This document shows, in pieces, positions 2,167-10,318 of a stretch of 10,580 nt of DNA (its first letter is position 1; the number at the start of each line of letters is the position of its first letter). The stretch comes from Candidatus Diapherotrites archaeon CG10_big_fil_rev_8_21_14_0_10_31_34 (GTDB lineage Archaea; Iainarchaeota; Iainarchaeia; Iainarchaeales; 1-14-0-10-31-34), in the NCBI GenBank assembly GCA_002763225.1, contig PFAI01000043.1:2751-13330 (forward strand). The letters run 5' to 3'. The notes below the pieces were generated by a model. The model had not been told where the DNA came from, made no database searches, and was given only the letters and a program-made list of their open reading frames with translations. Made by a program: the position numbers and the translations under genes.

Positions 2167-2289
2167 GGCTGCCACTGTCAGCCGGCACCAGTGCACCATC
2201 TTCGCTTCGGCTCGATGGAGCTTCACTCTTTGCAGCTCGGCTGAGCGCAAGCGAATGCCGTGCACGCATGTTAACTGGGCGTGGCAGTT
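2167..2289. repeat. 123-bp GC-rich degenerate palindrome filling the tRNA-Met/tRNA-Glu spacer (structured ncRNA or REP/MITE-like element)
   Basis: About 60% GC in an AT-rich context. Paired blocks CTGCCAC/GTGGCAG, CAG/CTG, GTGCAC/GTGCAC, TTCGCTT/AAGCGAA, GCTC/GAGC and GAGCT/AGCTC all share one dyad axis at 2228. Confidence 0.75.
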
Positions 2290-2481: not shown

Positions 2482-3153
2482 TCATTCCTTTCCAATACGG
2501 CTTTTTACTTCTATTTTTCCTTTTTCGTATAATAAGATTCTGTCTGCGTAACCGACAAACAAGCCTGTTTCTAATACTCCGGGAATTTCTTTTGCCTGAA
2601 ACTCAAATTCTTCCGGAAAAGGAATTGAGTCAGTTAAAACATCGATTACATAATTTCCTGATTCAGTTTTAGTTAAGCTTTCATTTGTTTTTCTTTCTCT
2701 TGCTGCGCCCATGCTTTCCAACTGCATTTTGGTTCTCTTCCACCAAAAAGGGGAAACCTCAAATGGAACTACTCCAAACAGTTTTGAAACAAAATTTTGT
2801 TTTCTTGCAATAATAATCAAATCTTTTGCGCTTTGGGCAATCATTTTGTCTCTGACAAAACTCTTTGAATCTCTTTTAATATAATTATAATTATAGTCAA
2901 CTAAGTCAGCGAATTCTATTGCTACATCAACTTCTTTTTCATCTAAAGAGCCAATTTCCAGATTTAATTGTTTTAAAATAAAAGTTATTTCAGCTGAAGT
3001 TGGGACAATCTTTAAGTCTAGTCCTTCAATTTCTTTTCTTAAAGCCATTTTCTTCAAAAACTTTATTCCTAACTCGCTTGAGCCAATTCCAATTGTCTGG
3101 CCATGCTTAATGTATTTTTCAACTAACAATTCAATCTGGTCTTCAGGAATCAT
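2482..3153 (-). CDS. rpiA: Ribose-5-phosphate isomerase A-like protein with degenerate active-site motifs
   Basis: RpiA layout: TIGIGSS, IVPTS, VPFEVSP, GNYVID, IPGVLETGLF. The DGADE and KGGG...REK motifs are altered. GTGAT SD before the ATG. Confidence 0.75.
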   Translation of the reverse strand: MIPEDQIELLVEKYIKHGQTIGIGSSELGIKFLKKMALRKEIEGLDLKIVPTSAEITFILKQLNLEIGSLDEKEVDVAIEFADLVDYNYNYIKRDSKSFVRDKMIAQSAKDLIIIARKQNFVSKLFGVVPFEVSPFWWKRTKMQLESMGAARERKTNESLTKTESGNYVIDVLTDSIPFPEEFEFQAKEIPGVLETGLFVGYADRILLYEKGKIEVKSRIGKE

Positions 3154-3211
3154 TTAATCACTTTATATTACACTGTTTTAATTAAAAAAACTGCTGTTTT
3201 TTTTGTTTTGC

Positions 3212-3226
3212 CGTAAACCTTTAAAA
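3212..3226 (+). promoter_or_regulatory. BRE + TATA promoter of the kinase-trpB2 unit
   Basis: CGTAAACC followed by TTTAAAA (3220-3226). The TATA starts 31 nt before ATG 3251, the same spacing as the YdeI-like gene, which implies a leaderless transcript. Confidence 0.55.
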
Positions 3227-3250
3227 TTACCTTTGTTTATTATTTTATTT

Positions 3251-3283
3251 ATGAAAAGAGCTGAGTGCCTTTGGCAAAATTAA
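3251..3283 (+). other. Trp-containing leader ORF MKRAECLWQN* with candidate +1 frameshift site CTT-TGG-C (3269-3275)
   Basis: ATG AAA AGA GCT GAG TGC CTT TGG CAA AAT TAA lies at the predicted transcript start. The +1 frame is open from GGC 3273 to TAG 3366-3368. Confidence 0.55.
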
Positions 3284-3368
3284 TTCTGATTCTGTTTTAA
3301 TTAATTATAGCTCAAAAAAAATTTTTTCTGAAGGGAGCTGTCAGTACAGCGGCTGTTTTTGGCTTTAG
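3273..3368 (+). other. Second leader segment [31 protein letters not shown] with candidate +1 frameshift site TTT-TGG-C (3357-3363)
   Basis: No ATG/GTG/TTG in this segment. It ends TTT TGG CTT TAG, and a +1 slip enters GGC TTT AGT GAA GTA AAA CTA, where the kinase-like sequence begins. Confidence 0.5.
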
Positions 3369-3867
3369 TGAAGTAAAACTAATTGAATTATCTGAATTAA
3401 AGCCTCATGAAAAAATAAATAACGCAAAATTAACTGAAGTAATTAATTCAATTAAAAAGCATAAAACCCTTTTTTTTCCTGTTGTAATAGAAAAAACTAA
3501 TTTAGTTATTTTGGACGGCCATCATAGAGTTCAGGCATTCAAATTACTTGGAATAAAAAAAATTCCTTGTTTTTTAGTAAACTATTTTTCTGATGAAATA
3601 AAATTATTTAACAGGAGAAAAAATTTTAATGCAACAAAATCCGGTGTGGTTTTAAGGGCTCTGGACGAAAACCTTTTTCCCTACAAAACCACAAAGCATG
3701 TTCTTGAATTATTCAGGATAAACTATAAATTGGAGGTAAAAAAAATGCATAAAATAAATGAAATAAAAAAAACAGGAGGAAATAAAATGAAAAAAGAATT
3801 AACTGAAATAAAAACAAAAAACTCTGGTGAAGGGAGGCGTCTTTGGCGTAATACAATTGAATGCTGA
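3361..3867 (+). CDS. Compact ParB/Srx-fold protein, SerK/SbnI-like free L-serine kinase candidate; no canonical start for the full domain
   Basis: The frame is open from 3301. Motifs [36 protein letters not shown] and LFPYKTTKH resemble SerK (KPHE, DGHHR, DYF, PKTTRH). The track's start at 3511 would remove the KPHE motif. Confidence 0.7.
3732..3789 (+). promoter_or_regulatory. Two strong SD+ATG initiation sites in the kinase frame, not the trpB2 frame
   Basis: GGAGGT (3732-3737) with ATG 3745, and GGAGGA (3775-3780) with ATG 3787. Both read into ...[13 protein letters not shown] ending at 3867. Confidence 0.65.
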
Positions 3868-5134
3868 TGATTTTCCAAAACATTATTATAATATTCTTCC
3901 AGACCTGCCTGAACAACTTCCTTTTCCTTTGAATCCCGAAACAATGGAACCAGTTAAACCAAAGGATTTAGAGCCATTGTTTCCAAAAGAATGTATTAAA
4001 CAGGAATTCAGTTCAGATTCACTTATAAGAATTCCAGAAGAACTAAGGGAACAATACATTTTTTTAGGGAGGCCAAGGCCTTTATACAGGGCTTTAAGGC
4101 TGGAAAAAAAATTAGGGCTTCCAAAAGGAATAGAAATCTATTATAAAAGAGAAGACTTAAGTCCTGTTGGCTCGCATAAGCCAAACACTGCTTTGGCTCA
4201 AGCATATTATGGAAAAAAGCAGGGATTTGAAAATGTTGCAACTGAAACCGGTGCAGGGCAATGGGGTTCAGCTGTTTCTTTGGCGGCAATGTTCAATGAA
4301 TTAAAAGCAGAAGTGTTTATGGTGAGAAGTTCTTTCCAGCAAAAACCTTACAGGGAAATTTTAATGAATTTGTTTGGAGCAAAAGTTTTTGCTTCTCCTT
4401 CAGAACACACAAGCATAGGAAAAAAATTATTGCAGGAAAAAAAGAATTTTAACGGCTCTTTAGGCATAGCCATAAGCGAGGCAATAGAAAAAGCTGTTTC
4501 AGATGAAAAAACTTTTTATTCTATTGGTTCTGTTTTAAACCATGTTTTAATGCATCAGACAATAATCGGCTTGGAAACAATAAAACAGTTTGAATTAATT
4601 GACAAAAAACCTGATGTATTAATCGGCTGTGTTGGGGGAGGAAGCAATTTTTCTGGAATGGTTTATCCTTTCATGGAAAAAAAACTAAAAGGAAAAGAAG
4701 ACTTTGAAGTAATTGCAGTTGAACCAAAAGCAGTTCCGACTTTAACTAAAGGAGAATACAGATATGATTTTGCAGACACAGGAAAAATGACTCCATTAAT
4801 TAAAATGTATACTATGGGTTATGACTTTATTCCAGAGCCAATTCATGCAGGAGGGCTAAGATATCACGGAGATTCTCCTTCTCTTTCTCTGCTGAAAAAA
4901 TTGGGTTTTTTGGATGCAGTGGCTTATTTACAGGAAGAAACATTTGAAGCAGCAAGAATTTTTGCAAACAGCGAAGGAATAATTCCTGCTCCGGAAACAG
5001 CTCACGCAATCAAGGCTGCAGTTGATTCAGCCTTAAAAGCAAAGAAAAACAATGAACAAAAAACAATTGTCTTTAATTTTTCTGGGCATGGCTTGCTTGA
5101 TTTGGCTGCATACAAACAAATGCAGAGGGCTTAA
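3827..5134 (+). CDS. trpB2: Tryptophan synthase beta-chain type 2 (TrpB2, PLP-dependent); probably entered by a +1 shift at 3841-3844 rather than from GTG 3827
   Basis: [29 protein letters not shown] (PLP lysine), [53 protein letters not shown]. No trpA in the window. Confidence 0.95.
3832..3847 (+). promoter_or_regulatory. prfB-like +1 programmed frameshift cassette with a Trp codon: GGGAGG-CGT-CTT-TGG-C
   Basis: Internal SD, 3-nt spacer, P-site CTT(T), A-site TGG. The +1 frame is trpB2 and the zero frame stops at TGA 3865-3867. Confidence 0.7.
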
Positions 5135-8828: not shown

Positions 8829-10121
8829 TCATTTTAAAACAGTTTTAAGTTTTTCTAAATCAGAAAACTTTATTTTAATTTCTTTTCCTGAATCCATGTT
8901 TTTCAGGGAAAATTCTTTTGCTTTAAATTCTTTTTCCCCTAAAACAATAACAAAAGGAATTCCTTGTTTTGAAGCAAAATCCAGGTTCTTTGAAATGCTT
9001 CTGTTCAGTAAATCTATTTCAGCATTGATTTTAAGTAAGCGAATTTTTTCAACAAAATCAATTGCCTTTTTTCCATTATTAATTGGAATAACAAAAATTT
9101 GTGTAACAGAAAAATTTTTTTTTAATCCTTTTGATTCTAATTCATCCAAAATCCTTTCCAAACCAAAAGAAATTCCCACAGCAGGAAACTCTTTTTTTCC
9201 TGCAATTAATCCAATCATTTTGTCATATCTTCCTCCTCCTCCAACAGAACTCCTGACTTCTCCTTTTTTCAAAAGAATTTCAAAAATTGGGCCAGTGTAA
9301 TACGCCAGACCGCGCACCAAAGACGGAGTTATGCATAAGTTACTTGTTTTGTATTCTTTTGATAACTCTAAAATTTCTTTTAATTCTTTTATTCCTTCTT
9401 TTCCTTCTTCTGAAGAAACTTTTTTTTCCAGTTTTTCCAGTATCTCATAATTGCTTCCTTTTAATTCAATTAATTCAAATATTTTTTTGATTTTCCCTGC
9501 TTCAATTCCTTTTCCTTTTAATTCTTTTTCTATTTCTTTTTTTGGCTGTTTATCTAATTTATCTATTGCAAGCAATACACCCAGAATTTTGTCTTTTTCT
9601 ATTCCAATTTCTTCCATTAAGCTGTTTAATAATTTTCTGTTATTCAATCTGATTTCTGCATCTAATTTTAATTCTTTAAACACTTGTTCTGCTATCTTAA
9701 TTATTTCTGCATCAGCTGTCATTGTTTTTATTCCAATTGCATCTACATCACATTGATAAAATTCCCTGTATCTTGAGGTTGTTGTCGGCCCGTCCCTGAA
9801 AACTCTTTCAATCTGGTATCTTTTGAAAGGCATTCTTAAAGCAGGATTCAATGCAATTACTCTTGCTAATGGAACAGTCAAGTCATACTTTAACCCTAAT
9901 TTTCTTTTGCCTTGGTCTTCAAAAGAAAAAGTTTCTTTTAGTATTTCTTCTCCTCCGGCATATTTTGAACTCAGTACATCAAATCTTTCAAATACAGGAG
10001 TTTCTATTGGTGAATAACCATATAATTCAAATATTTTTTTCATTTTTTTAATTATTTCTTGTTTTGGAATCTGTTTTTCCGGTAAGAAATCTCTTGTTCC
10101 TTTTGGTGCAATTAATTCCAT
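8829..10121 (-). CDS. hisS: Histidyl-tRNA synthetase
   Basis: PKGTRDF, LKYDLTVP, RYREFYQCDVD, LVRGLAYYTG, GGGRYD, GISFGLERI, and a C-terminal anticodon-binding domain. Confidence 0.97.
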   Translation of the reverse strand: MELIAPKGTRDFLPEKQIPKQEIIKKMKKIFELYGYSPIETPVFERFDVLSSKYAGGEEILKETFSFEDQGKRKLGLKYDLTVPLARVIALNPALRMPFKRYQIERVFRDGPTTTSRYREFYQCDVDAIGIKTMTADAEIIKIAEQVFKELKLDAEIRLNNRKLLNSLMEEIGIEKDKILGVLLAIDKLDKQPKKEIEKELKGKGIEAGKIKKIFELIELKGSNYEILEKLEKKVSSEEGKEGIKELKEILELSKEYKTSNLCITPSLVRGLAYYTGPIFEILLKKGEVRSSVGGGGRYDKMIGLIAGKKEFPAVGISFGLERILDELESKGLKKNFSVTQIFVIPINNGKKAIDFVEKIRLLKINAEIDLLNRSISKNLDFASKQGIPFVIVLGEKEFKAKEFSLKNMDSGKEIKIKFSDLEKLKTVLK

Positions 10122-10223
10122 TTTTGGTCACTTGTTTTTTTGAACTCGTAAGAGTTCCTTTTTTGATCAAACTTTTTTGTGAAAAAAGTTTGTGTTCTTT
10201 TTGGTGCAATTAATTCCATTTTT
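10095..10223 (-). repeat. 31-bp direct repeat (1 mismatch) duplicating the hisS start
   Basis: 10095-10125 vs 10193-10223, offset 98 bp; both copies encode MELIAPK. Confidence 0.9.
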
Positions 10224-10318
10224 TTTTCACCAATAGTTTTCGCATAGCGAAAACCGTTTTTGATACAACTTTTTTCTAAAAAGTTGTTTTTGATTAAACC
10301 TTTTATTAAAAGGTTTAA
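10142..10318. repeat. Array of five short perfect palindromes
   Basis: 10142-10157 (6-bp stem), 10168-10192 (11 bp), 10236-10254 (8 bp), 10265-10287 (10 bp), 10294-10318 (11 bp). Confidence 0.85.

Follow-up and report, generated by a model that had tools for sequence, protein, structure and literature searches.

In bacteria, the production of release factor 2 is autoregulated by a +1 frameshift in prfB, at CUU-UGA-C with a Shine-Dalgarno (SD)-like element 3 nt upstream. To our knowledge, archaea have yielded no case of leader-peptide attenuation or of a T-box, and how they adjust their amino-acid synthesis, tRNA genes and synthetases to the supply of amino acids is, as far as we know, largely obscure. 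For yeast Ty1, the part of the review by Atkins et al. (2016; PMC5009743) that concerns it gives the +1 site as CUU-AGG-C, with low availability of the A-site tRNA driving the shift; the same source reviews the hungry-codon frameshifting obtained by Gallant and co-workers with laboratory constructs in starved Escherichia coli, and its text on that subject states that no natural starvation-specific trans-frame proteins are known. The subject of the present analysis is a leader found in a 10,580-nt stretch of DNA (hereafter the window; contig PFAI01000043.1, positions 2,751 to 13,330) of the groundwater archaeon Candidatus Diapherotrites archaeon CG10_big_fil_rev_8_21_14_0_10_31_34, a metagenome-assembled genome (MAG) of 1.04 Mb with 30.8% GC and 81% completeness (G000). 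This leader precedes the genes for a SerK-like small protein and for TrpB2, and we consider it probable, though well short of certain, that +1 frameshifting limited by the supply of Trp-tRNA acts there in two steps in series.

All features of the locus lie on the plus strand downstream of the divergent rpiA, and comprise, in order, a 110-nt leader, the ParB_N/SerK-like small protein (3361 to 3867, assigned with Pfam and NCBIfam; hereafter the kinase), whose frame continues into the TrpB2 leader in this genome, and TrpB2 (3845 to 5134, counted from its junction codon GGC 3845). The leader begins with the mini-gene ORF1 (3251 to 3283; ATG AAA AGA GCT GAG TGC CTT TGG CAA AAT TAA), which encodes MKRAECLWQN with codon 8 as its single Trp codon. 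A TATA-like box read directly from the sequence, TTTAAAAT at 3220 to 3227, lies 22-23 nt 5' of this ATG, and two other species of the genus (L002 and L003, which together with the window make up the three-species comparisons below) keep a TTTAAAAT-type box at the same spacing, which suggests a transcript that is leaderless or nearly so. Site 1 is CTT TGG C at 3269-3275, where a +1 shift from frame 2 to frame 3 is proposed; stops at 3252-3254 in the +1 frame and at 3281-3283 in the 0 frame confine any shift at this site to 3255-3280. The middle frame (3273 to 3368, a 31-residue reading) is open from 3255 and contains no ATG, GTG or TTG; it runs for 29 codons from GGC 3273 to TTT 3357-3359 and then reads TGG CTT TAG. 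At its end lies site 2, TTT TGG C at 3357-3363, where a second +1 shift is proposed from frame 3 into the kinase frame, which extends from GGC 3361 to TGA 3865-3867 and is without ATG, GTG or TTG over 3301-3510 (bounded by TAA 3298-3300 and TTG 3511). A first-pass annotation made from the sequence alone had traced this same course, from an ATG 31 nt after the TATA box (counted from the first base of TTTAAAAT) through the ORF1 reading, the 29-codon stretch and the step onto GGC 3361 to the startless interval, and every coordinate was confirmed; its remark that each of the three frame segments of the window contains exactly one TGG, with the onward frame always +1 from it, also holds at all three sites. 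The junction Gly of site 2 coincides with the N-terminus of relatives having ordinary starts. Re-pairing in the +1 frame is possible at all three P-site codons (CTT-T 3269, TTT-T 3357 and CTT-T 3841), a tRNA-Leu(GAG) gene was found in the genome, and UGG is used there at 7.5 per 1000 codons. A direct route from ORF1 to the kinase frame by one -1 shift was considered and dropped as impossible, since frame 1 is closed by stops at 3262-3264 and 3298-3300, the latter falling beyond the stop of ORF1 itself.

In the proposed mechanism, ORF1 would be the sole ribosome entry point on the transcript. While charged Trp-tRNA is plentiful, UGG 3272 would be read, the ribosome would stop two codons on, and no downstream product would be made. 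When Trp-tRNA is scarce, the A site would stay empty at UGG, the peptidyl-tRNA would slip from CUU to UUU, and GGC would be read; the middle frame would then be translated to UUU-UGG (3357-3362), where a second +1 shift would bring the ribosome to the point at which the SerK-like protein naturally begins. A further cassette, the third, at 3841-3847, could take ribosomes into TrpB2, whether they arrive in the kinase frame or from internal SD+ATG pairs. With such stepwise Trp-gated entry, the output should climb steeply as Trp-tRNA falls, and the products would form an indole-salvage pair in which a serine kinase makes O-phosphoserine and TrpB2 joins O-phosphoserine to indole. Re-pairing of CUU or UUU onto UUU or UUC would follow the route of prfB and Ty1. 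The locus shares with prfB a P-site CUU followed by U, a product in the +1 frame and a shift rate that would report the supply of an A-site factor; it differs in that its A-site codon is the sense codon UGG, so that the leader would sense Trp-tRNA and not a release factor, and also in its archaeal host, in its gates in series, in a 0-frame product that would be a throw-away leader, and in the lack of an adjacent SD-like element at sites 1 and 2. The heptamer form, CUU followed by a hungry sense codon and C, is that given for Ty1 in the portion of PMC5009743 cited above, where the Ty1 shift is described as constitutive via a rare tRNA and as making Gag-Pol, whereas the tRNA supply in the present case would vary with an amino acid and control the pathway of that same amino acid. 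Hungry-codon frameshifting, as that source presents it, is alike in being a single-base shift under limiting A-site aminoacyl-tRNA and unlike in that the E. coli work used laboratory constructs.

The three-frame layout, namely an ATG-started ORF1, an open frame at +1 and the kinase at a further +1, with YTT-TGG at both junctions, is kept in L002 and L003. ORF1 reads MQRVERLW.. and MKRVECLW.. in these orthologues, site 1 is CTT-TGG in 3/3 species, and the codon before TGG at site 2 is TTT, CTT and TTT across the three, the amino acid thus varying and YTT-T remaining constant. The YTT-TGG-C motif of the first-pass annotation therefore stands for YTT-TGG and falls for the trailing C, which is replaced in L003 (TGG-A, TGG-T) and in L005, a locus of another genus described below (TGG-G). 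Between the sites the middle frame has no stop in any of the three species, and the other frames have 4 and 14, in DNA of 31% GC. The orthologues differ by a single 3-nt indel between the sites and by 6 nt after site 2. Leader identity is 92% and 80%, compared with 78% and 80% for the kinase, i.e., the leader is conserved like coding DNA, and right after site 2 the kinase frame shows 12 synonymous versus 17 non-synonymous changes. In a shuffling test, a two-step YTT-TGG chain from the ATG to the kinase frame arose by chance in 252 of 200,000 dinucleotide-preserving shuffles of 3254-3360; the warning that TTTGGC is a common hexamer was justified, [CT]TTTGGC being present in 604 copies in the genome. 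A metagenome scan with the kinase protein gave four loci, two from the same organism and two distant, and no new two-step relatives, and a 21-mer scan of genome contigs with the leader gave nine matches, of which two were archaeal MAG contigs and seven were bacterial chance matches.

The frame layout does not stem from faulty assembly. L009, a contig of another metagenome, is identical over 3151-3682, the sole regional difference being 3683 A>G; the Logan contigs of runs X2 and X3, which cover 3151-3950, show this one substitution and zero indels, and that of run X4 covers 3176-3517 without any difference. Among the sequencing runs listed for the locus there is no RNA run. Because the Logan contigs show no indels, homopolymer errors, a fault that the first-pass annotation had allowed for, are excluded. 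It is scarcely credible that the kinase has lost its start and is decaying, or that an assembly or transcriptional-slippage artefact at the A8T6 run (3314-3327) has produced the layout: a canonical start is lacking and homopolymers are present, as such a view would have it, but independent assemblies are identical, the kinase frame is intact with the substitution counts given above, and the A/T run is not kept in L003. Nor did the orthologues show a sense codon at 3298, as a simple nonsense pseudogene would suggest; the stop is kept as TAG in both L002 and L003.

ORF1 is a diverged copy of a leader found across the archaeal order. The leader type is a short ATG ORF, canonically ..RRDLL-X, which stands immediately behind a TATA box or an SD and ends with an NTT codon followed by one codon that we call the specifier. 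In another genus of the same family (L005), ATG AAA AGA AGG GAT TTA CTT TGG (MKRRDLLW) is separated by one +1 step from the orthologous kinase, which is startless for 26 codons and gave no Pfam match; TrpB2 at that locus starts in the ordinary way, with SD+ATG. In L004, from a third genus, it is TrpB2 that follows this cassette, and the kinase begins with an ordinary ATG. ORF1 equals the L005 cassette at 18 of 24 bases by manual count. The core AGAAGGGAYNNN found directly before NTT is absent at site 1, which reads AGA GCT GAG TGC and keeps only R(-5), an acidic residue at -3, L(-1) and W of the order-wide core; at site 3 GAAGGGA is retained, with a one-base shift. The exact 17-mer GAAGGGATTTACTTTGG is present in 21 copies in 20 of the 196 genomes of the order, and a looser cassette pattern gave 74 matches in 54 genomes, about twice the number of its reversed control (manual tally). 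When the codon before TGG was left free, a manual count of recognisable cassettes gave 26 CTT, 2 TTT, 3 GTT, 2 GCC and 1-2 ATT and no other Leu codon; CTT accounts for only 16% of the Leu codons in G000.

The frame relation seen in the window recurs throughout this family. Outside the window, 15 cassettes are followed by a +1 ORF of at least 100 codons; L062 was dropped as its site is inside a 397-codon ORF, and in all of the 14 counted the enzyme ORF is in the +1 frame from the specifier, starting at its second base, the +2 frame never exceeding 51 codons. No ATG, GTG or TTG is present from -40 to +10 codons of the junction in 10 of these 14. The Pfam domains on the scanned +1 ORFs are TrpE (3), TrpD, TrpB2-type PALP (3), HisG, AA_kinase (ProB-like) and Asp_Glu_race (2), and, where the first stretch was listed, they begin about 10 residues past the junction. 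Five cassettes with GTT or GCC before the specifier (L064-L068) have a TAG in the +1 frame two codons before the junction, so that a shift could occur only at X-UGG itself; in these variants the shift might proceed by out-of-frame binding of the next tRNA. As a separate observation, the genes in the +1 frame behind the Trp-specifier leaders (RRDLVW) of L064:100-771 (minus) and L066:795-1502 (minus) belong to the Asp/Glu-racemase family, which hints at a Trp-related role such as the use of D-Trp.

The specifier agrees with the downstream gene. A search for the same motif with other codons after it gave 26 matches in 22 genomes of the order. In the loci run through ARAGORN, those with TGG included, the specifier matches the downstream tRNA in 20/20 cases, namely 11/11 for Trp, 6/6 for His and 3/3 for Pro, where TGG precedes tRNA-Trp, CAT or CAC precedes tRNA-His and CCT or CCA precedes tRNA-Pro. 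Before enzyme genes, TGG is found with trpE/D/B, TrpB2 and the kinase, CAT with hisG (in the +1 frame), and CCT with proB and proC. Candidates rejected as leaders were L079, L080 and L082 (inside a PAC2-like gene, in the +2 frame), L074 and L075 (with CAA, without ATG), and L081, L083-L085 and L087 (..WFRRDLLHH.. without a nearby ATG); the last five share a conserved ..SWI[KN]SS..[WL][FG]RRDLLHH.. with two His codons and no obvious downstream partner. Of the 18 leaders of tRNA-Trp type, all have 28 or more open codons past UGG in the +1 frame (median 36); the 0 and +2 frames have median open lengths of 5.5 and 6 codons. Roughly one leader in two has the end of its +1 frame within about 25 nt of the 5' end of the tRNA. 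That a startless frame should be open only at +1 is hard to explain unless ribosomes enter at the specifier. Among the tRNA-Trp leaders L034-L059 (e.g., L037:1501-1703), the +1 ORF often ends ..S[IY]FIKF[FY]S[IL]Y[AS]W[HR]W, a tail in which two more Trp codons occur and which lies across a T5-7 run, TATTTTTAT; this run could be an archaeal oligo-T terminator, and the whole points to a further level of control ahead of the tRNA gene.

The window itself contains a second leader of this kind, with a His specifier, on the minus strand. The His leader MKSEYLHNKKQFN* (MKSEYLH; 10500-10459, minus) ends with CTT-CAC and precedes tRNA-His (10390-10318, minus), which is followed by hisS (8829-10121). 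Its +1 frame is open for 33 codons up to a TAG 8 nt inside tRNA-His, and its +2 frame stops after 5 codons. The leader is kept in 5/5 species of the genus with a match, the window included, the other four reading MNSECIH, MKSECLH, MKSDRVH and MKSEYVH, all with NTT-CAY and with +1 frames of 33-69 codons. The leader type of the genus can thus be written M-K-[SR]-x-[ED]-x-[LIV]-X, and ORF1 (MKRAECLW) is its Trp version, by which site 1 gains independent support. Separately, the first ~30 nt of hisS (ATGGAATTAATTGCACCAAAA..) is repeated about 90 nt upstream, between tRNA-His and hisS (10095-10225, minus).

Serial cassettes occur elsewhere in the order, and the serial design therefore does not seem peculiar to the window. 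In G025, two RRDLLW cassettes 67 nt apart stand before trpE, the second in the +1 frame of the first, and the TGA of the final +1 ORF overlaps the trpE ATG; in G032, trpD is fused to two cassettes that follow each other in a +1 step, and a Cys pair (TGC, then TGT) is present as well; and G174 has two Pro cassettes before proB. In both G025 and G032 the second Trp cassette is a full RRDLLW (or RRNLLW) lying in the +1 frame of the first. With cassettes placed in series, the response would scale as a power of the shift rate, and the arrangement predicts that Trp limitation elicits a steeper response than one gate alone would allow.

For the +1 specifier-frameshift class as a whole our confidence is higher than for the two-step cascade of the window. 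Whether the members form an order-wide, ribosome-read specifier-codon regulon, in which shortage of the aminoacyl-tRNA for the codon after NUU would cause a +1 shift, is a proposal for which we would claim even chances. In such a regulon the shifted ribosome would make the enzyme directly, couple to the enzyme's ATG, or translate up to the tRNA gene and thereby escort RNA polymerase. Attenuators of the trpL type are alike in placing a short leader ORF before trp genes and in using translation of Trp codons as the sensor, but they have a tandem pair where each leader of the present type has one Trp codon, and the window has no detectable terminator/antiterminator fold and an enzyme ORF that is startless and in the +1 frame. 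T-box riboswitches of Gram-positive bacteria also use one specifier codon that matches the amino acid of the controlled gene, and also act on synthetase and biosynthesis genes; in contrast to them, the specifier here is apparently read by a ribosome inside an ORF and not bound by an uncharged tRNA on a folded RNA, no Rfam match was obtained, and tRNA genes also appear to be under control in the leader family. Our full-text literature searches, which covered articles without their supplements, found no description of archaeal leaders of this specifier-frameshift type. If the proposal is true, archaea would have their own equivalent of attenuation and T-boxes in a frameshift switch that is read at one sense codon. 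Gene callers would then have to be revised, as trpE, trpD, trpB, hisG, proB and the kinase would be truncated or mis-started in these genomes. It would also be the first natural regulatory hungry-codon frameshifting when set against the statement quoted above from that part of PMC5009743.

No structured RNA was detectable at the leader. An Rfam scan of 3100-3950, with the T-box covariance model included, gave no match at E <= 1; folding of 3251-3400 gave a minimum free energy of -26.6 kcal/mol, shuffles averaging -27.8 (z = +0.37), and no terminator/antiterminator fold; and alifold of the three orthologues gave a covariation term of +1.12. A predicted helix within 3259-3313, in which AGAGCUGAG (ORF1 codons 3-5) pairs with UAUAGCUC (3306-3313), shows one compensatory change among the three species (C-G, U-G, U-A) and would enclose site 1 and the ORF1 stop. 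This one pair and the high nucleotide identity of the leader are what a structured sensor, riboswitch- or T-box-like and with the short ORFs merely incidental, could be built on, yet the absence of an Rfam match in the scanned interval, folding no better than that of shuffles, the covariation term, and an order-wide conservation that concerns the ATG, the frame relations and the specifier codons make such a sensor very unlikely.

Several observations weigh against serial frameshifting as the way into the kinase, and a first group of them concerns possible start codons. P0003 has an M at the position matching CTG 3328, and L002 has a TTG just after site 2 that gives a normal-looking N-terminus, MNKIKLIE, used by the public annotation P0005; L002 and L003 also have a TTG in the middle frame four codons before the GGC of site 1, where the window has CTG 3261. 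Possible starts are likewise present near the junction in four of the 14 enzyme cases (L013, L042, L052 and L063). Single-codon leader control occurs in bacteria, and pausing at UGG might alter folding or termination without any frameshift, the kinase then starting at ATT 3304, ATA 3307 or CTG 3328. The M of P0003 and the retention of TTAATTATA in all three species would suit this leader-peptide control. Nevertheless, CTG 3328, which the first-pass annotation had named as a possible non-canonical start, is CAG in L003, no SD precedes any of the candidate codons, and the folding and Rfam results do not help; moreover the +1 rule (14/14), the junction-proximal TAG in five cassettes and the long +1 frames before tRNAs are left unexplained, and we regard such control as unlikely. 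Another view is that only site 2, and perhaps site 3, acts as a gate, the middle frame starting at CTG/TTG 3261 and ORF1 being a separate overlapping regulatory mini-ORF. The TTG of L002 and L003 speaks for this, as does the fact that the CTG-to-TTG and AGT-to-AGC changes there are synonymous in the middle frame. The window itself has CTG at this place, however, with no SD before it and only 10 nt inside a probably leaderless transcript; ORF1 shares its length, ATG position and NTT-X ending with the leader family of the genus, and the serial cassettes of G025, G032 and G174 are likewise joined only through the +1 frame, so that we consider gating by site 2 without site 1 improbable.

A second group of adverse points concerns the shift signals and the middle frame. 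Sites 1 and 2 lack the canonical AGAAGGGAUUUA element beside the shift codon. Site 1 has no SD-like element, and the nearest one to site 2, GAAGGGAG (3330 to 3337), which is a core common to the order-wide cassette and site 3, lies 19 nt 5' of TTT-TGG with a small GCUG..CAGC hairpin between, whereas site 3 has GGGAGG at 3 nt; GAAGGGAG is present in 12 copies in the genome, two of them at this locus. The GAGCTGA and GCGG that the first-pass annotation had offered as weak SD-like stimulators of sites 1 and 2 gained no support, and the 3' end of 16S rRNA was not found in G000. GTT and GCC cannot re-pair in the +1 frame, and simple slippage is therefore not the mechanism everywhere in the family. 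Two serial shifts of low efficiency would give a very low yield. The synonymous/non-synonymous counts between the sites, 6/26, 5/27 and 6/25 for the three frames over three sequences, fail to separate the frames. As these counts give no proof that the middle frame is translated, one could imagine a translational bypass like that known from phage T4 gene 60, in which peptidyl-tRNA-Leu would detach from CUU 3269 when UGG is hungry, pass over 86 nt and resume pairing at UUU 3358-3360; the take-off and landing codons are compatible, and both stand before GGC. Against it are the middle frame, stop-free in all three species, the inter-site indel of exactly 3 nt, and the second cassettes of G025 and G032 in the +1 frame of the first, and we hold a bypass to be highly improbable. 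The proposal of the first-pass annotation, serial +1 gates leading from an ATG into the kinase, is on balance favoured by the layout in the two other species of the genus, by the one-step arrangement of L005 and by the order-wide +1 rule.

A crude scan of G000 for an ATG...TGG followed by a long startless +1 ORF gave 13 matches for +1 and 5 for +2; control codons gave 1-27, which is noise, and the filter missed the present locus itself. In-frame CTT-TGG is rarer than expected in the long ORFs of the genome (14 observed versus 28 expected), where ATT-TGG occurs at 0.30 and TTA-TGG at 1.32 of expectation; the shortfall of CTT-TGG fits avoidance of shift-prone pairs, and other biases could also explain it.

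Site 3, GAAGGGAGG-CGT-CTT-TGG-C (3829 to 3847), has the SD-like GGGAGG 3 nt before CTT, the same as the prfB spacing, and offers a +1 step into TrpB2. The GAAGGGA core precedes CUU by 4 nt in the canonical cassette; at site 3, where it provides the GGGAGG, the distance is 5 nt. The two codon registers differ, which suggests that the core acts as RNA. Within the 3' end of the kinase (3732 to 3789) are two strong SD+ATG pairs, GGAGGT 3732-3737 with ATG 3745 and AGGAGG 3774-3779 with ATG 3787, which probably serve as independent entry points to the leader of site 3 (leader 3). TrpB2 is the exception to the startless rule in the window, as GTG 3827 is available as an alternative conventional start; L003 has CTG at that place. 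In L003 the kinase ends ..KLEVKK*, and this stop separates leader 3, MKKQITQAKTIKETEGSCLWRNKFAC*, as an ORF of its own. The third step thus appears optional, as does the leader-kinase-TrpB2 fusion of 626 residues that the first-pass annotation had computed: its sum is right (7 + 29 + 161 + 429) and the fusion is possible in the window, but it is not conserved and separate entries are available.

TrpB2 matches NCBIfam PRK12391 with 658 bits (cut-off 366). The kinase matches Pfam ParB_N with 26.7 bits, just above the cut-off of 26.3, and NCBIfam SerK with 67.4 bits against a cut-off of 380, the match covering profile positions 15-99 of 244, i.e., the N-terminal part only. It adjoins TrpB2 in 7/7 matched loci from five genomes of the family (two of the loci being one gene). 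O-phosphoserine is a substrate of TrpB2 enzymes (Busch et al. 2014, as cited in the part of PMC11917138 that mentions it), and a serine kinase next to TrpB2 would therefore make a sensible indole-salvage pair; it is from this neighbourhood and substrate that we infer serine kinase activity for the SerK-like protein. Searches of G000 with the TrpE and TrpD proteins of relatives found no homologues. In an organism with neither trpE nor trpD found, the locus would join a short SerK-like protein to TrpB2 in a two-gene unit for indole salvage.

Some features of the tRNA genes are added here. The tRNA-Trp gene of G000 has no RRDLLW-type leader; it lies on contig C13 (minus, ~31773-31910), has an intron of about 60 nt after the anticodon loop, and was missed by ARAGORN. 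A small conserved hairpin, ..CCATCGAGCC-N3-6-GCGAAGATGG.., which resembles a kink-turn, is located just 5' of tRNA-Trp and tRNA-Glu genes, and was seen in G000 at C13 ~31730-31770 (minus), in the window at ~2190-2225 (minus), and in many tRNA-Trp leaders, such as L043 and L049.

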